IMG/VR virus record: IMGVR_UViG_2778261588_000008
Span: 1 to 32,849 of that record
Length of the DNA: 32,849 nt
Direction: 5' to 3' (one strand)
Source of the DNA: a virus
Lineage: Duplodnaviria > Heunggongvirae > Uroviricota > Caudoviricetes
Part shown: positions 5,406 through 15,965 of the stretch, piece by piece
How positions within the stretch are numbered: the stretch's first letter is position 1
Layout: every line of letters begins with the position of its first letter
Made by a program: the position numbers and the translations under genes
The notes under the pieces: model-generated
Told to the model about the DNA's origin: nothing
The model's database searches: none
Seen by the model: the letters and a program-made list of their open reading frames with translations, nothing else

Positions 5406-6095
5406 CTAACCAAATCTGTTTATGTTGAATGGTACTGATGAGATCACTTTAGACTGGATATAAAGCAGAGCTAACCCCTCTTTTTCGATGCTCCATGGTT
5501 GATAATTGGGGTTATCAGATAACACCATGATTTTGCTTCCAATTTTTTGAAGCCTTTTCACGTAGCATTCTCCATCAAAACAAAATGCATAAATACCATC
5601 GCCATCAAAATAAGTTACTGTCTTATCAAGAAAAAGAAGGTCGCCAGGTGAGATTGTGGGAGCCATACTGTCTCCTCTGGCGTTACCTATTTCTATATTT
5701 TTGAATGCCCGATTTCCAACAAGACGTCGGGCATATTCAGGATCAAGTTCTATTGAGCGCACTACATCTATCAAGTCACCACGGACATGAGTTCCATCAC
5801 CGCAACTAAACTCAACATCAAGGACATTAAACACGACGCTATCTGTTCTTGTCTGGTGTTTCTCTTGCGAGGAAAAGGTTGGTGAGGAGTCTTCACCTAA
5901 GAACCAGGATTGTGGATAACCGCTAATCTCTGATAAATGCGCGAGCTTATCACTCCGTGGAAATGTTTTTCCTGTTGTCCAGTACTGCACTGATTGCGCA
6001 CTCACACCTAACTTGCGGGCCAGTTGAGCCTGAGTCCATCCTTTTGCTTTCAGCATCGCGGCTATTCGATTTTCCGTGTTTTTGACGTTCTTCAT
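5406..6095 (-). CDS. cI: CI-type prophage repressor (N-terminal HTH + C-terminal S24/LexA-like autopeptidase)
   Basis: 229 aa; N-terminal HTH (GWTQAQLARKLGVSAQSVQYW); C-terminal G-D-S-M (Ser nucleophile) and downstream Lys in YVKRL, as in lambda CI/LexA; divergent from cro-like gene. Confidence 0.9.
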   Translation of the reverse strand: MKNVKNTENRIAAMLKAKGWTQAQLARKLGVSAQSVQYWTTGKTFPRSDKLAHLSEISGYPQSWFLGEDSSPTFSSQEKHQTRTDSVVFNVLDVEFSCGDGTHVRGDLIDVVRSIELDPEYARRLVGNRAFKNIEIGNARGDSMAPTISPGDLLFLDKTVTYFDGDGIYAFCFDGECYVKRLQKIGSKIMVLSDNPNYQPWSIEKEGLALLYIQSKVISSVPFNINRFG

Positions 6096-6228: not shown

Positions 6229-6528
6229 ATGAAAGGAAATGATTACGACGTACTTCGCGCATTAATTGCGCAAAATGCCATTGCACGAAACCTTGGTGTA
6301 ACTCCGCAAGCGGTGAATCAGTGGTTTTCAAAAAACACAATTCCTGCTCGTTTTGTTTTACGCGTATGTGAAGTAGTTGCATGGAAGGTCACGCCACATG
6401 GCTTAAGGCCAGATCTTTATCCTCACCCTGAAGATGGAATTCCTGATTCGTTACGCAAAATTTCAAATCCAAGCCTAGCGCGCACGGAAGATGGGCAGAG
6501 TGATTCATCAGAAATGTCCACGCGATGA
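6229..6528 (+). CDS. cro: Cro-like HTH regulator (YdaS/Cro family)
   Basis: 99 aa; HTH with GVTPQAVNQW signature of Cro/YdaS-type proteins; divergently arranged with cI. Weak SD, short leader. Confidence 0.7.
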   Translation: MKGNDYDVLRALIAQNAIARNLGVTPQAVNQWFSKNTIPARFVLRVCEVVAWKVTPHGLRPDLYPHPEDGIPDSLRKISNPSLARTEDGQSDSSEMSTR

Positions 6529-7459: not shown

Positions 7460-7668
7460 TGCAAACCAAGACGTGTGTAACTGGTGATGTCGATCTGAAA
7501 CCTTGCCCGTTCTGCGGAAATCCGGAAGTACAACTCATTGAGGTGAAATATTTTCTGGATGGCGATGATGGTTATTACGTCGCATGTACTTGCTGTAACG
7601 CAAACCAGATCCCTGATTCGAAAGAACGTGCTGTTCATGACTGGAACCAGCGTGAAAACGCGGATTGA
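7459..7668 (+). CDS. lar: Lar-family restriction alleviation protein
   Basis: 69 aa; KPCPFCG...C.CC zinc-ribbon pattern and AVHDWNQR tail typical of Lar (Rac prophage restriction alleviation) family; start overlaps upstream stop (TAATG). Confidence 0.6.
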   Translation: MQTKTCVTGDVDLKPCPFCGNPEVQLIEVKYFLDGDDGYYVACTCCNANQIPDSKERAVHDWNQRENAD

Positions 7669-7793
7669 CGGCGAGTAGGTACAAAATGATCCGCAACCAA
7701 CATATTGATTCTGCACTTTTGGGACGTTACACTGTCTCTGCACCTTATAAAGCGGGGGCCGGGCGTGGAAACCCGAAATTCAATATAGAGCAC

Positions 7794-7815
7794 AACCGCG
7801 CTCATGCGGTTTTTT
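7794..7815 (+). terminator. candidate intrinsic terminator between lar and rha
   Basis: AACCGC-GCTCAT-GCGGTT hairpin followed by T-run (7810-7815). Confidence 0.35.
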
Positions 7816-7985
7816 CGTGTCATGAGCATCGTTACGCCCAAATTATGGTGGGGCGTGCAGGGCCAACTTCGGTTGGGCCGGGTTCTATGTTGACCGGTAT
7901 TTCCACCCCTGTACGTCTCACCACCTATATGGTCGTGGAAAGCCTTGGTGGTGAGTTCATTGAATTCAACATAGGGGCTGTCACC

Positions 7986-8537
7986 ATGACTACTCTCCCA
8001 ACCCTCTCTCAACCTGAAATCACGATTATCAATGGTCGTGTTGTCACCACATCTCTTGCAGTTTCTAATTACTTTACTAAACGGCATGAGCGGGTTTTAG
8101 ACAGAATTCGAAACCTCGAATGTTCCGCTGAATTTACTGAACACAATTTTGTGTTAAGTGAATACACCGACGCATCAGGCCGCAAACTTCCCTGCTACCA
8201 AATCACCCGCGACGGTTTTGCGTTTCTTGCCATGGGCTTCACTGGCAAACGTGCAGCCAGGTTCAAAGAGGCATACATCAACGCCTTTAACCAGATGGAG
8301 AAGAATTTATCTGGTGCTGACGCGGTTGATATGTCAGCTGTTGCACGAAACGCCAGAGGCGTATACCTGCATTTGCGTGAAATCCATCAAATCTGGAAAA
8401 GCCAGCTTTACCCCATGCTTAAGGCCGTTGAATCTCCGCTGGCGAGCAAGCTGTACGACCGTGTAGGTGATGCTGTTTTTGGTGCTGCACTTGTTGATTC
8501 CAGACTGAATGGTTCTGACAAGGAGGTGCGCCCATGA
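7986..8537 (+). CDS. rha: phage regulatory protein Rha
   Basis: 183 aa from ATG 7986 (AGGGG SD). N-terminus ITIINGRVVTTSLAVSNYFTKRHERVLDRIRNLEC...YQITRDGFAFLAMGFTGKRAARFKEAYINAFNQME matches the Rha family. The ORF-track upstream extension (TTG at 7665) is low-complexity and contains a terminator-like hairpin. Confidence 0.7.
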   Translation: MTTLPTLSQPEITIINGRVVTTSLAVSNYFTKRHERVLDRIRNLECSAEFTEHNFVLSEYTDASGRKLPCYQITRDGFAFLAMGFTGKRAARFKEAYINAFNQMEKNLSGADAVDMSAVARNARGVYLHLREIHQIWKSQLYPMLKAVESPLASKLYDRVGDAVFGAALVDSRLNGSDKEVRP

Positions 8538-8767
8538 TCCGCCACATCGTTAATTCCCTGTATCACCGATACAACCGTTGCCCCCGGGTGGGGCAGTGGT
8601 TCACCACCAGCAACGGCCACGTTCTGCGGGTTTGCCTGGTCAATACAGAAAGCCAGAAGGTTGTCTGCCAGGTTCAGGGACGTACTCATACCCTGAGTTA
8701 TCCGCTGGTGGCGTTTCAGTCCGGAAAAATGTTTAAACGCCTGGGAGGTGGCTATGCGTCCGTCTGA
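8534..8767 (+). CDS. hypothetical protein (77 aa)
   Basis: ATG overlaps rha stop (ATGA); no recognisable motif. Confidence 0.45.
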   Translation: MIRHIVNSLYHRYNRCPRVGQWFTTSNGHVLRVCLVNTESQKVVCQVQGRTHTLSYPLVAFQSGKMFKRLGGGYASV

Positions 8768-9662
8768 TCTTCTGCTCGATTTTGGACATCCGGTTGCTTA
8801 TTACCCTGGGCTCGTTAAATACATGGGAAGTCCGCACGCTGTTATTTTCTTTGGTCAGATTTTTTACTGGCAGGATAAAGCACATGCAGCGGAAGGCGTA
8901 CATAAAACGCGTGAAGAGATACAACACGAAACCGGACTTACATTTGAACAACAGGCTGTAGCGCGTAAGCATCTTGTGTCCAGAGGCATTTTGGTTGAAA
9001 CCAACAAGCGTCTTGAGCACAAAATGTTCTACCGTATAGATTGTGAGCGCCTTAATGAAATTATCAATGAAAACAATCAGTTTTCCCGAAATGGGGAAAC
9101 CCGTTTTCGGGAAACTGTAAAACCCAATTTCGCGGAGGAGGGAAAGCCTTCACCGCGGACACGGGAAACCCCTCGCCGCGGAGAAGGGAAAACCAATTTC
9201 GATCTTACAGAGAATACAACAGAGATTACTTCAGAGAATACTACAGAGAGTAAAAACACTATTGGCGCATCCGCTGACGCGTCTGCACCAGCACGTTCTG
9301 CCCGACAGGAATATTCACCGGAATTTGAACAGGCCTGGCAGGAATATCCCAAACGTGCTGGTGGTAATTCCAAGTCAGCAGCCTTCAAAGCCTGGAAAGC
9401 CCGTATCAGGGAGGGAATAAAACCGGAGACCATGCTTGATGGTGTGAAGCGGTATGCCGCCTGGGTACGTGCTACAGGAAATACCGGCACACAGTTCGTG
9501 AAGCAGGCTGCGACGTTCTTTGGACCCGATCGTCACTTCGAAGATTACTGGCAACAGCCAACCGCTCCCGGAGGTGGGCGACAGCGACAGGTCGATGTCC
9601 TGGCTGGCCTGGGAGCCATGTCTGACAAATTCGGTAAATCCAGTGACAAACTGACATTCTGA
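8754..9662 (+). CDS. replication initiator / replisome organiser (lambda O-like position; DnaT-like C-terminal region)
   Basis: 302 aa from ATG 8754 (GGAGGTG SD); lies directly upstream of DnaC-like and DnaB-like genes; middle of the gene encodes a low-complexity linker over a phased DNA repeat array (putative ori). Confidence 0.65.
   Translation: MRPSDLLLDFGHPVAYYPGLVKYMGSPHAVIFFGQIFYWQDKAHAAEGVHKTREEIQHETGLTFEQQAVARKHLVSRGILVETNKRLEHKMFYRIDCERLNEIINENNQFSRNGETRFRETVKPNFAEEGKPSPRTRETPRRGEGKTNFDLTENTTEITSENTTESKNTIGASADASAPARSARQEYSPEFEQAWQEYPKRAGGNSKSAAFKAWKARIREGIKPETMLDGVKRYAAWVRATGNTGTQFVKQAATFFGPDRHFEDYWQQPTAPGGGRQRQVDVLAGLGAMSDKFGKSSDKLTF
9085..9250. repeat. putative origin of replication: iteron array plus AT-rich tract inside the initiator gene
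   Basis: Three 23-bp direct repeats with exact 23-bp phasing, each CGCGGA-N3-GGGAAA(G/A)C (unit starts 9131, 9154, 9177); two further GGGAAAC copies at 9093-9100 and 9108-9115; followed by A/T-rich ACAGAGA repeats (9205-9250). Confidence 0.5.
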
Positions 9663-9672
9663 GGTGACAGCG

Positions 9673-10551
9673 ATGATGACGATTAACCAACGTGAGAAAC
9701 AAACAAGACTACAGGCGCGAATGGATGAGTTACGGGCAGAGATTGCATTTGCTCAGAATGGCGAAAAGCCATGGCCTTACCGCGCCTGCCGGGAATCTGA
9801 AGGGGTTGGATGCTGCGAAAAACACGGTAAATATCGTACGCATATACTGGTGTGGGATGATCGGCAGGGGGGCGCTGTCTCAAAAATTTCCCGCTGTCCG
9901 GAGTGTCTGGTGGATGAAATGGATGTGACACATCGGACTCTGGTTGCAATGAAAGCTGATGTGCTGATTGAGAATGCTGGTGTTGCCTGTAGGTTTCGCG
10001 ACTGTGAGTTTGAAAACTATCAGGAGATTAACTCTGATGCAGCCAGAAATCTTGCTGCCTGCCGCCGCTATGCAGAGAGCTGGGAGGATGTTCTGGCTAA
10101 CGGTACCAGTCTTGTTCTGACAGGCAGTTGTGGTACCGGAAAAAATCATCTGGCTGTGGCTATGGCAAAACACATCATCCGTAACCATCTGGCCAGTGTG
10201 GAGATTACTGATGTGATGCGCCTTACCCGTGCTGTGAAAAACTGCTGGCGGAATGACAGCGAAAAAACAGCGGATGAAGTTATTGAGCATTATGCGTCAT
10301 TGGATTTGCTGATCATCGACGAAGTCGGCGTTCAGTTTGGCAGCGCGGCTGAAATGGCTATTTTGCAGGAAATTATCAATGCCCGGTACGAAAGCATCCT
10401 GCCCACCATCCTGATCAGCAACCTTTCACCGGAAGAGTTGTGGGCGTTCATCAGCCCCCGCATTGCCGACAGGATCACAGACGGGGGACGCAACTGGTTG
10501 TCGTTTAACTGGCCCAGCTATCGTGCGCATATTGGAGGTGTGGCTGCATGA
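9673..10551 (+). CDS. DnaC-like helicase loader (IstB-type AAA+ ATPase)
   Basis: Walker A GSCGTGKNHLAVA, Walker B LLIIDEVG; N-terminal Cys cluster (C..C....C..C); GAGGTGA SD; stop overlaps dnaB-like start. Confidence 0.8.
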   Translation: MMTINQREKQTRLQARMDELRAEIAFAQNGEKPWPYRACRESEGVGCCEKHGKYRTHILVWDDRQGGAVSKISRCPECLVDEMDVTHRTLVAMKADVLIENAGVACRFRDCEFENYQEINSDAARNLAACRRYAESWEDVLANGTSLVLTGSCGTGKNHLAVAMAKHIIRNHLASVEITDVMRLTRAVKNCWRNDSEKTADEVIEHYASLDLLIIDEVGVQFGSAAEMAILQEIINARYESILPTILISNLSPEELWAFISPRIADRITDGGRNWLSFNWPSYRAHIGGVAA

Positions 10552-11939
10552 CCACTCCAGTATGGCGTAACGATGATCTGGAAGGCGCTGTCATTGGCGC
10601 GTTTTTTCTGCGTGGGGCAGATCATGAAGTGATGGATATTCTGGCCACACTGCCAGCGGACGTTTTTTCTGTACGAGCGTATAGGGATATCTACACAGGC
10701 ATCTGCCGACAGGCTCGTGTTTCAGGTGTGATTGATCCTGTGCTGCTGTGTAATGAAATGCCGGAACTTGCTCCGGTGATTACTGATACCGGGCGTAAAA
10801 CCTGGGTGAAGTCTTCACTGGAGCACTATGTTGCAGCGTTGCGGCGCAATGCTGCATTGCGTGATGCAGAAAAAACACTGAATGAGGCGCTGCAGAAATT
10901 ACGTGATGCGCATACCTGTGAAGCAGCTGAAGATGTCCTGAAGGATGCGCAGAACATGATGGCTTCATTGTCGACGGAAAAGGGCATTATTCAGCCGGTA
11001 CATATTGATGATGTGCTTCCGGAGGTGGTTGAGCGTGTTGAATGCCGGAATCAGGGACTGGAAAAATCCAGAACGTTGATGACCGGTATTGATGAACTGG
11101 ACGCAAAAACAGGCGGCATGGAGCCCGGCGATCTGGTATTTATTGCGGCTCGTCCGTCAATGGGCAAAACCGAACTGGCGCTGGATATCATCGACAAGGT
11201 GACTGAGCAGGGGCATGGTGTTCTTCTGTTCACAATGGAAATGGCGAACATTCAGATCGGTGAACGCATGGTGTCTGCTGCCGGAGGAATGCCTGTATCG
11301 CGCCTGAAATCTGTCTCTCACTTTGGTGACGAAGACTGGGCGCGTTTCATTAAGGGGGTGGAGCTGATGACCGGACGCAATATCTGGATGGTGGACCAGG
11401 CGAACCTGACCATTGATGAAATATGCGCAACAACGAAACACCATCTGATTAAACACCCGGAAACGGCGCTGGTGGTGGTTGATTATCTCGGGCTGATAAA
11501 AACCCGTACCATAGGACGTCATGACCTTGCCGTGGGGGAAATATCAAAAGGGCTTAAAGGCCTGGCAAAATCCGGCGGATTACCGGTGGTTGCGCTGAGC
11601 CAACTTTCCCGTGGAGTTGAGTCCAGACCCAATAAACGACCTATGAACTCAGACCTGAAAAATTCCGGAGAAATAGAGGCTGATGCAGACATCATTCTGA
11701 TGCTTTACAGGGATGAAGTGTACAACCCGGATACGCAGGCCAGAGGCATTGCAGAAATCAATATCACGAAACAACGTAACGGTTCTCTGGGGACGATTTA
11801 CCGGCGTTTTTATAACGGACATTTTCTGCCCGTAGACCAGGAAAGCGCACAGATTCTTTCCACCCCAATGCAGCAGCCCCAGCCGCGCAGATACAGCAAT
11901 AAGCGAACCGACAGCAGTAAGATGGAGCGTTTCTTTTGA
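10548..11939 (+). CDS. dnaB: replicative DNA helicase (DnaB family)
   Basis: 463 aa; Walker A ARPSMGKT, RecA-like C-terminal domain (VVVDYLGLI, ALSQLSR), N-terminal DnaB-type domain; GGAGGTG SD. Confidence 0.9.
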   Translation: MTTPVWRNDDLEGAVIGAFFLRGADHEVMDILATLPADVFSVRAYRDIYTGICRQARVSGVIDPVLLCNEMPELAPVITDTGRKTWVKSSLEHYVAALRRNAALRDAEKTLNEALQKLRDAHTCEAAEDVLKDAQNMMASLSTEKGIIQPVHIDDVLPEVVERVECRNQGLEKSRTLMTGIDELDAKTGGMEPGDLVFIAARPSMGKTELALDIIDKVTEQGHGVLLFTMEMANIQIGERMVSAAGGMPVSRLKSVSHFGDEDWARFIKGVELMTGRNIWMVDQANLTIDEICATTKHHLIKHPETALVVVDYLGLIKTRTIGRHDLAVGEISKGLKGLAKSGGLPVVALSQLSRGVESRPNKRPMNSDLKNSGEIEADADIILMLYRDEVYNPDTQARGIAEINITKQRNGSLGTIYRRFYNGHFLPVDQESAQILSTPMQQPQPRRYSNKRTDSSKMERFF

Positions 11940-12561: not shown

Positions 12562-13446
12562 TTATATTGGGCGCTTTGAATTCGATTTAAAGCGTCTTCC
12601 ACTTATTCCAGAAACCCAAATGTCTTCCTCAAGAAAGTCAAGAAGGGCTTTTATTTCTTTTTTTGATGAAGGCATGACAATTTTCTCAACACCACCAACT
12701 ATTATGGTTTGTAAGGGGAATTTAACTTTAGCAGCTTCGGATTTAAACTTTGACATATTTGGGAGTGTTAGCATCCCAGTCTGATTTATTAGTGTTACTT
12801 TATTTCTTATCACTGTATCTGCAACGGATTTTAGATCAAAACCTTGGGGAGTAGAAAATACACTAAGTTGACTAAATGCATTAAGTTCTTGGTCAGTAGC
12901 AGCAGAAAAATAGGACGACATGTCAAAAATACTTCTTAGATTAAAGAAACTCTTAAATCGTATTGTATCATTGATAATTATTGCAACTAGTTTATCATCA
13001 ACATTAAAACCGATGCTATTAGCTTTACTAAAGGTAGTTTTGCTTGCACAAAGCTTTCCAAAGAATGATTTTGAGGTATCTAAGATTTGTTTTTTGTTGA
13101 AAGTTTGTAGTGCAATAATATTGGGGTTTGCTGGCGCGTCAACACCAACAAATAATGCTTTAATATAACCAATATCAATTTGGCTAGGATCCCAGATAGG
13201 CACGGCGGTAGGCCTATTGACTGCGTCAATCAGGCGTGCAGAATCAGTAAAGTTTTGTATTTCAAAACACTCACTATGTTTTGGTGTATAACCGGCATAG
13301 AATGGTATCATATTGTTATGATGACTTTCAAAATATTGACGCTGTTGTTGGAAAATGGCCGTAACAGAAGTACTTGCTGTTGCATCAAGTTCGACTCTAA
13401 CAATTCTCGTTGCAATTGTATTATCTATTACTGCAAAAAGTGCCAT
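12562..13446 (-). CDS. hypothetical protein (294 aa), second gene of counter-oriented AT-rich cassette
   Basis: ATG at 13446 with AAAGGA SD; 6 nt downstream of the membrane-protein stop; visibly AT-rich codon usage unlike flanking phage genes; no catalytic motif recognised. Confidence 0.7.
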   Translation of the reverse strand: MALFAVIDNTIATRIVRVELDATASTSVTAIFQQQRQYFESHHNNMIPFYAGYTPKHSECFEIQNFTDSARLIDAVNRPTAVPIWDPSQIDIGYIKALFVGVDAPANPNIIALQTFNKKQILDTSKSFFGKLCASKTTFSKANSIGFNVDDKLVAIIINDTIRFKSFFNLRSIFDMSSYFSAATDQELNAFSQLSVFSTPQGFDLKSVADTVIRNKVTLINQTGMLTLPNMSKFKSEAAKVKFPLQTIIVGGVEKIVMPSSKKEIKALLDFLEEDIWVSGISGRRFKSNSKRPI

Positions 13447-13451
13447 GGTTA

Positions 13452-13970
13452 TTATCCTTTAACATGTAGAAATGTGTAGTCTGTTAATTGAATAACTGTA
13501 AATTTGATATCTTTAATATCAGTAATGACTGATTTAGAAATCAATACAAAACCTACGCCGGTGTCATCTTCAGCTTCGTAAAATTTATAACCGATAAGTG
13601 ACAATACTGGGTTAAAGTTATAGTTCTCGGAAAAGCTGATGTAAAATAACAATGACAAATAAAAGAATAACGCATATGCTTTATTTTCAGCAATAGAATC
13701 TGTTCCTAGGAGAGGGAATAAATAGCTTAAGAAATAATTAGTTACTTCTTTGTTAGCGGGAGAAACTGAACTAATATTTTTTGTCAGAGGTTCAAGTTGT
13801 TTCTCAGCATATTGAATCAGGCCTATTGCTAATAACCAACTTGCTATGCCAACGCATAAGCTATATTGCATCAGCCAAACCGTATCTTTTACATATCCAA
13901 TAAAAAATAGAGTTGCGCAAACAGGTGCAATTGAGCTGGCTGTTAATAATAAGCGTGCTAATTTGTTCAT
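13452..13970 (-). CDS. integral membrane protein (~4 TM helices), first gene of counter-oriented cassette
   Basis: 172-173 aa (two adjacent ATGs, AAAGGA SD); four hydrophobic segments then a ~60-aa soluble C-terminus; AT-rich. Confidence 0.7.
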   Translation of the reverse strand: MNKLARLLLTASSIAPVCATLFFIGYVKDTVWLMQYSLCVGIASWLLAIGLIQYAEKQLEPLTKNISSVSPANKEVTNYFLSYLFPLLGTDSIAENKAYALFFYLSLLFYISFSENYNFNPVLSLIGYKFYEAEDDTGVGFVLISKSVITDIKDIKFTVIQLTDYTFLHVKG

Positions 13971-14135
13971 CATGATATCCTTTGTACTGTTTATGCATAC
14001 AGCACTTTACATCATGTACTCCAAAGTATCTATCTTGTGAAGAATCTTACACTAAATACTACAGAAAAGTTAACGCGTACGCAAAAAGTATTATATCGTG
14101 TTAAGAGTGGTTACTTCGCCACACAGCTTAAACCC

Positions 14136-15890: not shown

Positions 15891-15965
<75 letters not shown>

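Follow-up and report, generated by a model that had tools for sequence, protein, structure and literature searches.

In the lambdoid phages lambda, P22 and L, each phage has its own iterons within the coding region of its replication initiator (PMC8022706). Dimers of the lambda O protein bind inverted-repeat iterons of about 20 bp in the centre of the O gene (PMC5043065, PMC8022706), and once all iterons are bound on supercoiled DNA the adjacent strand-asymmetric A+T-rich region opens (PMC5043065). The exact sequence of the DNA unwinding element (DUE) matters in oriC and RK2, both of which use 13-mers (PMC5043065). The lambda record annotates four iterons, with distances of 20, 24 and 23 bp between their starts and with ACACAAAAGACACTATTACAAAAGAAAAAAGAAAAGATTATTC after them; the P22 rep_origin annotated within gene 18 contains four repeats at intervals of about 23-24 bp, after which ACAAAAGACAATAT occurs twice. 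For the Shiga toxin (Stx) phages 933W and P27, lambda-O-like initiators with six lambda-like iterons inside the initiator gene and dimeric binding have been described (Kozlowska et al. 2020, PMC7466680). Here we compare with these systems an element in the Caudoviricetes record IMGVR_UViG_2778261588_000008, analysed over its full 32,849 nucleotides (the window): an array of 23-bp repeats and an adjoining A-rich tract at 9087-9256, inside the gene of a 302-amino-acid protein.

We give a probability of roughly 85% to the reading of 9087-9256 as the vegetative replication origin of a lambdoid, Stx-phage-like E. coli prophage, placed inside the gene of its own initiator. This reading is strongly supported by the repeat anatomy, selection at the DNA level, the disordered linker that the repeats encode, their co-variation with the DNA-binding domain, the modularity of the gene, duplex stability, gene context and the reference origins. 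A sequence-only reading of the window had likewise proposed an origin on the lambda layout here, and the computational inference now upholds it with high confidence. The features concerned are as follows.

8754-9662, plus strand: gene of the predicted 302-amino-acid initiator, starting with the ATG at 8754 (the mechanical open reading frame, ORF, begins with GTG at 8748)
9025-9080: second, weaker AT-rich patch 5' of the array, with a GC content of about 32-35%, among the least stable 4-9% of the window
9087-9201: five contiguous 23-bp dyad-symmetric iterons (9087-9109, 9110-9132, 9133-9155, 9156-9178 and 9179-9201), putative sites for initiator dimers
9201-9204: GATC (Dam site) at the junction of iterons and tract, inside the conserved TCGATCnTACAGAGA
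9205-9256, plus strand: A-rich 12-mer tract (CAGAGAATACAA, CAGAGATTACTT, CAGAGAATACTA, CAGAGAGTAAAA), putative DNA unwinding element and module junction
9258-9260: mosaic breakpoint, 3' of which phiP27, PhiR49_2 and others match this part of the gene alone, at 97-98% identity

Repeat array, tract and initiator protein

The sequence-only reading had listed three direct repeats of the form CGCGGA-N3-GGGAAA(G/A)C, and a motif search of the window finds exact CGCGGA-N3-GGGAAA copies at precisely these three places (9131, 9154 and 9177), spaced exactly 23 bp apart. The last letters of that pattern are inexact: all three copies contain GGGAAA, but the unit at 9154 carries GGGAAACC, with CC after it. 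The two further GGGAAAC copies that had been reported are present as well, at 9094 and 9109, the latter marking the start of the second unit and not an in-register core. The array is larger than those three repeats, comprising five units in register, which in the earlier register would start at 9085, 9108, 9131, 9154 and 9177. When all 23 possible registers were scored across orthologues, the best dyad register was the one beginning at 9087. In this register each unit is an imperfect palindrome of the form CGrA-N3-GGG-AAA-CCC-N3-TyCG, with two 10-nt arms around AAA of which 5-8 of 10 positions match; the core of unit 2 reads GTAAAAC. The family consensus is CGAAnnnGGGAAAnCCnnnTTCG, and 35 pooled orthologue units yield CGCGAAnnnGGGAAACCCnnTTT, in which information is high at the outer CGAA/TTCG and the inner GG-AAA-CC. 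The array continues straight into CGATCTTACAGAGAATAC.

This periodicity stands out from the remainder of the sequence. Over 130 nt from 9075 the autocorrelation reaches 0.626 at period 23, the highest value in the window for periods 6-45, against a maximum of 0.538 across 100 simulated 32.8-kb sequences; the second-ranked periodic stretch is the 12-mer tract. The degenerate unit motif CGRANNNGGGAAASC, with at most one mismatch, matches four times, always within the array (0.55 expected), and none of 100 shuffles reached four matches. A unit of 23 bp corresponds to about 2.19 helical turns, so that the array turns by about 70 degrees per unit. Lambda-type origins have at least four repeats phased at about two helical turns; here there are five. 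Single-stranded, the region is predicted to fold strongly (z=-4.9) because its units are palindromic, with the 12-mer tract left unpaired; a known or structured RNA was rejected as an explanation, Rfam giving no match at the gathering threshold in 8700-9700.

Downstream of the array, what had been read as an A/T-rich tract of ACAGAGA repeats is indeed there (ACAGAGA at 9207, 9219 and 9243, TCAGAGA at 9231) and is better described as a 12-nt repeat, CAGAGA(A/T)TACnn, present four times at 9208-9255. The tract (9205-9256) has 35% GC, 47% A and 63% purine on the top, coding strand, and GC is also 35% over 9200-9259. Of all 40-50-bp stretches in the gene it has the lowest stability, and it belongs to the least stable 1.5% of the window; it thus combines the A+T-richness, strand asymmetry, low duplex stability and position next to the iterons that are looked for in a DUE. 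Inspection of the tract shows no fit to a DnaA-trio pattern, and among the tract variants of relatives a CTG site for primase is not kept. The weaker patch on the other side of the array codes for the conserved end of the N-domain (..NEIINENN..). The junction GATC at 9201 is the sole GATC within 9000-9400; it is kept in all enterobacterial orthologues, in mEp460 and in Kp4884-type phages and is absent from the Burkholderia and Acinetobacter relatives, and it may subject the origin to control by methylation or SeqA in Dam+ hosts.

The repeats occupy codons 111-167 of the ORF. An AlphaFold2 model built with 48 homologues predicts a folded N-domain (residues ~13-108, with a predicted local distance difference test score, pLDDT, of ~80), a helical C-domain (~185-270, pLDDT ~85) and between them a disordered linker (109-184, pLDDT ~30). 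It is this linker that the repeats encode, as the sequence-only reading had anticipated from its low complexity, and the array thus lies in its presumptive initiator's own gene, between the two domains. The N-domain is predicted to be a winged helix, with a helix-turn-helix and a beta-hairpin wing; Foldseek E-values are weak (0.02 or higher), and we therefore claim the fold class alone. Searches with the 302-amino-acid protein gave no Pfam match (E<0.01), no NCBIfam match and no PDB sequence match. PHROG profiles, in turn, place it among replication initiators, with phrog_270 at 8e-66 and phrog_9773 ('O-like') over the N-terminal two thirds, and PHROG 1701 ('DnaD-like helicase loader') matches residues 105-273 at 1.9e-38. 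Pfam finds neither DnaB_2 (PF07261) nor Phg_2220_C (PF09524) in the C-domain, for which a distant relationship of the DnaD or SPP1 G38P type is possible.

The earlier designation of the protein as O-like holds by analogy. It has no match to PF04492 (Phage_rep_O), and hhalign against lambda O returned a probability of 0.25%. The same Pfam family matches lambda O at 6e-36 and P22 gp18 at 7e-38, and none of the tested tract-bearing initiators. Because homology to lambda O (PF04492) is lacking, the initiator appears from these comparisons to be an analogue and not a homologue of it. An arrangement in which P22 gp18 would carry an mEp460-type N-domain was also ruled out, gp18 being a Phage_rep_O protein.

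In layout the locus nevertheless resembles lambda and P22 closely. As in these phages, the putative origin is embedded in the coding sequence of the initiator, where the linker joins a DNA-binding N-domain to a C-domain for partner binding; dyad-symmetric iterons, four to five in number, are spaced by about two turns (20, 24 and 23 bp in lambda, exactly 23 here) and are followed on the coding strand by an A-rich, purine-skewed tract with short direct repeats; and the gene stands in the early-right operon downstream of cro, with N-domain and iterons forming an exchangeable specificity module. There are also differences: the units of the window abut without spacers, the sequence of its tract is conserved across phyla whereas those of lambda and P22 are idiosyncratic, and its presumed partners, a DnaC-like loader and a DnaB-like helicase, are both encoded by the phage, in place of P and host DnaB (lambda) or gp12 alone (P22). 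The arms of the lambda origin palindrome, GTCAGAGAATTC and GAATCCTCTGAC, contain CAGAGAAT, the core octamer of the window 12-mers (CAGAGAATAC), which could be a coincidence or the remnant of a shared element.

A further parallel is oriL of Bacillus phage SPP1, the characterised paradigm for Gram-positive hosts, where a three-gene module likewise encodes an origin-binding protein, a helicase loader and a DnaB-type helicase (G38P, G39P and G40P), and the origin sits in the linker of the first gene, gene 38, with short repeats followed by an AT-rich stretch of 12-nt repeats. The C-domain type of G38P, Phg_2220_C, is one of those joined to the 12-mer tract in other phages. The SPP1 repeats, however, measure 9-11 nt and are not 23-bp units, and the window differs in its C-domain of the phiP27 L17 type and in a loader that is a DnaC/IstB-type AAA+ protein and not G39P. 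SPP1 oriL was considered as a characterised member of the class defined below and rejected, its layout being analogous without the TACAGAGAWTAC tract. Unlike the iteron plasmids P1, F, RK2, R6K and pSC101, whose origins are marked by direct, non-palindromic repeats for Rep monomers and by DnaA boxes, the window has dyad-symmetric units without a DnaA box or an integration host factor (IHF) site, and they lie inside a coding region. The 933W and P27 origins cited above differ from it in both initiator family and iteron sequence. The lambda-O-like P27 O protein with six iterons described in that work (PMC7466680) has no obvious match to the deposited phiP27 record AJ298298.

Relatives, co-variation and spread of the tract

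Repeats and tract are retained among relatives of graded distance. In eight closer bacterial orthologues five units stand in register, the top period is 23 bp and the junction TCGATCnTACAGAGA is invariant. In six phage relatives with 34-62% N-domain identity (phages of Burkholderia, Klebsiella, Aggregatibacter, Acinetobacter, Pasteurella and Salmonella), the gene likewise has its strongest periodicity at 23 bp and in the same position, and a variant of the tract follows; their units are related to those of the window, for instance GGAAATGGGGAAAGTCCATTCCG in Klebsiella Kp4884-1, CGAACTGCGGAAAGCGCATTTCG in BcepIL02 and CGAACGACGAAAACGCATTTCG in WCHABP12. mEp460, PhiR42_1 and Pantoea AH07 have a different N-domain and the same tract, preceded by 5-6 units with a period of 23 bp that are unrelated in sequence to those of the window (for example CATCGGGTCAAAATGACCTGATG and GGGCAAATTGCCCTCATC). 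The repeat sequence thus changes together with the N-domain, and clustering distinguishes at least 15 N-domain subfamilies, each with a 23-bp unit consensus of its own. Divergent as they otherwise are, the N-domains have in common a helix whose motif ends in YW (FGQIFYWQDK, LQQLHYWL, LSEIVYWYRP and NQLIYWSDR; residues 33-42 in the window), a surface that could serve a function common to all tract-bearing initiators.

The gene is also mosaic at the tract. phiP27 and PhiR49_2 share with it only the segment 9258-9662, mEp460-type genes share only 9201-9245, and database proteins (P0047, P0040 and P0042) join other N-domains, of mEp460 or sal3 type, to the exact C-domain of the window. Lambdoid O genes are known for the exchange of N-domain and iterons as a module, and the breakpoints seen here are what one would expect if N-domain and iterons together made up a specificity module and were linked by a constant element to a second module that binds the partner. 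In the deposited phiP27 sequence (AJ298298), gene L17 encodes an HTH_36/GntR-type N-domain with a window-type C-domain and is followed by DnaC and helicase genes; its linker contains other repeats (15-nt TGAACCnTCAGAATC) and lacks the 12-mer tract.

For the wider survey, a class was defined by a TACAGAGAWTAC tract in the middle of the ORF of an initiator gene, directly preceded by an array with a period of 21-24 bp; the window falls within this definition. A scan of IMG/VR for ACAGAGAWTACWWCAGAGAWTAC found at least 119 contigs. Among the matches listed, the top period of the 130 nt upstream was exactly 23 in 98 of 114 usable loci, and the tract lay mid-ORF, with a median of 167 codons upstream and 153 downstream. 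Two tract matches (L034 and L181) were left out as unrelated microsatellites. A subclass of the IMG/VR loci (L023, L038, L047, L064, L074, L076, L083, L088, L097, L115, L129 and L130) is exceptional in having the N-domain motif 'EIVYWYRPTEVRDEHTG' with a window-type C-domain and irregular upstream repeats (AAAACGGAACACCCCCC ... ATAACGGAACAGGGG), without a clean 23-bp array. The C-domains joined to the tract belong to at least seven families, including lambda-O-C-like, Phg_2220_C, window/phiP27-type and DnaB_2 domains.

Scanning one genome per species revealed at least 120 loci, where by our estimate chance would give about 0.3, in Proteobacteria, Firmicutes, Cyanobacteria, Campylobacterota, Chloroflexi, Fibrobacteres, Nitrospinota and the Candidate Phyla Radiation (CPR). 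In this species-level set the upstream period was 21-24 bp, or twice that, in about 105 of 116 loci (~90%), among the matches listed. By sensitive blastn, Staphylococcus, Bacillus and Geobacillus phages also have the tract in their initiator genes, preceded by arrays of 22-23 bp. One such record, OR842880.1 ('Xanthomonas phage SU1', 7437-10464), has 33% GC and an initiator nearly identical to Staphylococcus phage 37 ORF012, and is probably mislabelled or contaminated. Of 5426 complete E. coli genomes, 1416, about a quarter, contain the 40-bp tract with an identity of at least 95%, and 101 contain the whole window segment; in strain 2013C-3264 the segment is 100% identical. We found no mention of the tract, of the peptide TEITTEIT or of the origin class in the literature, older subscription work being outside the coverage. 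In that older work, P22 is reportedly treated by Backhaus and Petri in 1984, lambdoid origins by Grosschedl and Hobom in 1979 and phage replication modules by Weigel and Seitz in 2006.

Selection on the DNA and rival explanations

The segment encodes a disordered, compositionally biased linker, and the simplest objection to a cis-acting role would be that the repeats merely spell out a repetitive, low-complexity peptide, with selection or slippage acting on the protein and the DNA having no function of its own. The tract peptide TE(I/N)TTEIT is indeed kept in many homologues, with D150, E153, T155, T159 and E161 invariant in one alignment. Since 23 is not a multiple of three, however, successive unit cores fall into different frames (they begin at codon positions 2, 1, 3, 2 and 1) and encode different peptides. 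Codon-position identity points the same way. In seven gap-free orthologues (from Escherichia, Klebsiella, Serratia, Pantoea and metagenomes; mean pairwise nucleotide identity), the N-domain shows a normal coding signature, with 0.88/0.92/0.48 at positions 1/2/3 and an amino-acid identity of 0.86, whereas the iterons give 0.76/0.76/0.72 and the tract 0.84/0.76/0.82: third positions are as conserved as the others, yet the amino-acid identity of the iteron segment (0.56) is below that of the folded domain. Codon usage in the tract is fixed to a degree that the peptide does not demand. Across twelve relatives picked by protein similarity alone, Glu is encoded by GAG in 37 of 37 cases in the tract against 95 of 270 (35%) elsewhere in the same genes (p=1e-15), and Thr by ACA or ACT in 66 of 68 against 83 of 195 (43%; p=2e-17). 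Neither the high GC content of a Burkholderia phage nor the 31-37% GC of some hosts alters this fixation. The tract repeat of Aaphi23 and Pmp14 recurs every 13 nt, so that its two copies encode different peptides. The changes of frame, the flat codon-position identity and the fixed tract codons show that purifying selection acts on repeats and tract as DNA and not as peptide; frame analysis and codon-position conservation rule out a repeat of the peptide as their cause, and we regard a purely protein-level explanation as next to impossible.

If the DNA itself is under selection, it could serve a purpose other than initiation. The array might be an operator, through which the winged-helix protein, as a transcription regulator or autoregulating initiator, would control the downstream DnaC and DnaB genes while replication starts elsewhere. 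Its fold is equally like MarR, ArsR and CRP-type regulators and like initiators, NCBI names the orthologues merely 'DNA-binding protein', and weak promoter-like and terminator-like matches occur on the minus strand at 9040-9099. These matches are at chance level, and an internal promoter or terminator was rejected on that ground; PHROG profiles group the protein with initiators; and five abutting intragenic sites followed by a conserved A-rich repeat tract have the layout of annotated origins. The same architecture moreover occurs with at least seven C-domains and with different partners (DnaC plus DnaB, DnaB alone, lambda-P-like, G39P-like or none), which disfavours a role tied to particular downstream genes. 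An operator in place of an origin is accordingly very unlikely in our judgement, and autoregulation could exist alongside origin function. Hardly more probable is a third view, which concerns the tract alone and would leave the iterons free to be an origin: that the 12-mers act mainly as a recombination linker for the exchange of N- and C-modules and not as an unwinding element. Mosaic breakpoints on both sides of the tract, the chimeric N/C combinations and the near-identity of its 40 bp within otherwise dissimilar initiator genes of those 1416 E. coli genomes all speak for it. Exchange alone, however, cannot keep a 23-nt match across phyla of 29-55% GC (Cyanobacteria, Firmicutes, Proteobacteria, Campylobacterota, Chloroflexi and CPR); among the matches listed the tract has a constant polarity and lies about 5-8 nt from the last iteron; and at the corresponding place in lambda, P22 and SPP1 there are analogous A-rich tracts of short repeats, with other sequences. 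Recombination and unwinding may both be among its roles.

Several observations weigh against the reading of the locus as an origin, or add less to it than they seem to. Arm matches are few in units 2 (6/10) and 5 (5/10), which make poor palindromes. The AT-richness of the tract is moderate (35% GC), and lower duplex stability is seen in about 1.5% of the window. A winged helix is a generic fold, for which many transcription regulators score as well as replication initiators do, so that an operator is possible in principle. No DnaA box with at most one mismatch was detected in 8900-9400 and no IHF site was found nearby, an absence that agrees with lambda and is no independent support. Finally, origin function and initiator binding are conclusions from computation, not from experiment.

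Taking the locus as an origin, we infer, on the model of lambda and SPP1, the following course of initiation. Dimers of the winged-helix N-domain would bind the five abutting palindromic iterons and, because 23 bp amount to about 2.2 helical turns, would form a continuous, slowly spiralling nucleoprotein array that wraps or strains the DNA, comparable to the lambda O-some. On supercoiled DNA this array would destabilise or melt the adjacent A-rich, strand-asymmetric 12-mer tract, and the C-domain would then recruit the phage DnaC-like loader and the DnaB-like helicase onto the opened tract, giving the segment its origin activity.

The constancy of the tract allows a further, more tentative proposal, to which we would give somewhat less than even odds: that (TACAGAGAWTAC)n is more than an AT-rich spacer and constitutes a sequence-specific cassette for origin opening and helicase loading that is used across phyla. 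Dozens of iteron specificities and at least seven partner-binding domains go with the one tract. A constant tract implies a constant reader. This could be a surface of the initiator superfamily, such as the 'LLSQIxYW' helix capturing one strand of an opened 12-mer, or a universal host replication factor. DnaD, TrfA and RepE bind a specific strand of the DUE.

Prophage context and significance

The window carries a lambdoid prophage with an integrase at its left end. The initiator gene is followed by two further replication genes, and the early region upstream contains a cI-like and a cro-like gene.

5406-6095, minus strand: S24-type cI-like repressor, prophage early region
6229-6528: cro-like gene, prophage early region
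9664-10551, plus strand: DnaC/IstB-like AAA+ helicase loader (Pfam IstB_IS21 1.4e-15; PHROG 50 5e-83; NCBIfam DnaC 2e-39, below the family cut-off)
10548-11939, plus strand: DnaB-family replicative helicase (Pfam DnaB_C 4.8e-72; PHROG 19; TIGR00665 3.7e-92, below the family cut-off)

After the cro-like gene come antirepressors and the replication genes, then lysis, terminase, portal, capsid and tape-measure genes. The early order of cI-like, cro-like, antirepressor, initiator, DnaC-like and DnaB-like genes corresponds to that of the lambda early-right operon, and the DnaC/IstB-like protein is presumed to be the partner of the initiator C-domain. The initiator gene is 97-98% identical to that of Stx1a- and Stx2a-converting phages.

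Some neighbouring features deserve mention in their own right. Just upstream of the replication genes, Rfam matches at the gathering level indicate the Hfq-binding small RNA isrK (58 bits; 7740-7816, plus strand) and C4 antisense RNA (82 bits; 7841-7928, plus strand). Both are contained in the 5' portion of mechanical ORF 7665-8537, the translation of which matches Ash (residues 22-117) and Rha (128-213). The region 7740-7928 looks like a C4-controlled antirepressor switch of the P1/P7 type, and the 'Ash' part and Rha are probably not one protein. On the opposite strand of the early/nin region, ORF 12562-13446 (minus strand) matches Pfam KwaB, of the Kiwa anti-phage defence, at 1.1e-6, just above the gathering cut-off; together with the adjoining minus-strand ORF 13452-13973 it may form a prophage-borne defence cassette (12562-13973). 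A tRNA gene (15891-15962, plus strand; Rfam 65.6 bits) is located between a methylase gene and the lysis genes.

For the phage itself, the analysis locates the likely origin and specificity module of an uncharacterised replication system, composed of a Pfam-less initiator, a DnaC-like loader and a DnaB-like helicase. This system is carried by Stx1- and Stx2-converting phages, whose replication governs the dosage of the toxin genes after induction, and what has been published on the origins of Stx phages deals with the lambda-O type. As a single origin it is of an unsurprising kind; its interest lies in being an exemplar of a very widespread and apparently uncharacterised class, which combines contiguous 21-24-bp iterons with a 12-mer tract under DNA-level conservation and occurs among the phages and prophages of many phyla. 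The class yields a cheap sequence signature for prophage origins, and, with at least 15 pairs of N-domain and iteron on one scaffold, a natural experiment in initiator/iteron specificity. Conservation of the tract suggests that some step of origin opening or helicase loading depends on sequence, and raises the question of whether unwinding elements are read sequence-specifically. If the cassette proposal is true, the tract would at the same time be the joint at which recombination renders these initiators modular, and a simple mark by which prophage origins may be recognized in any genome.

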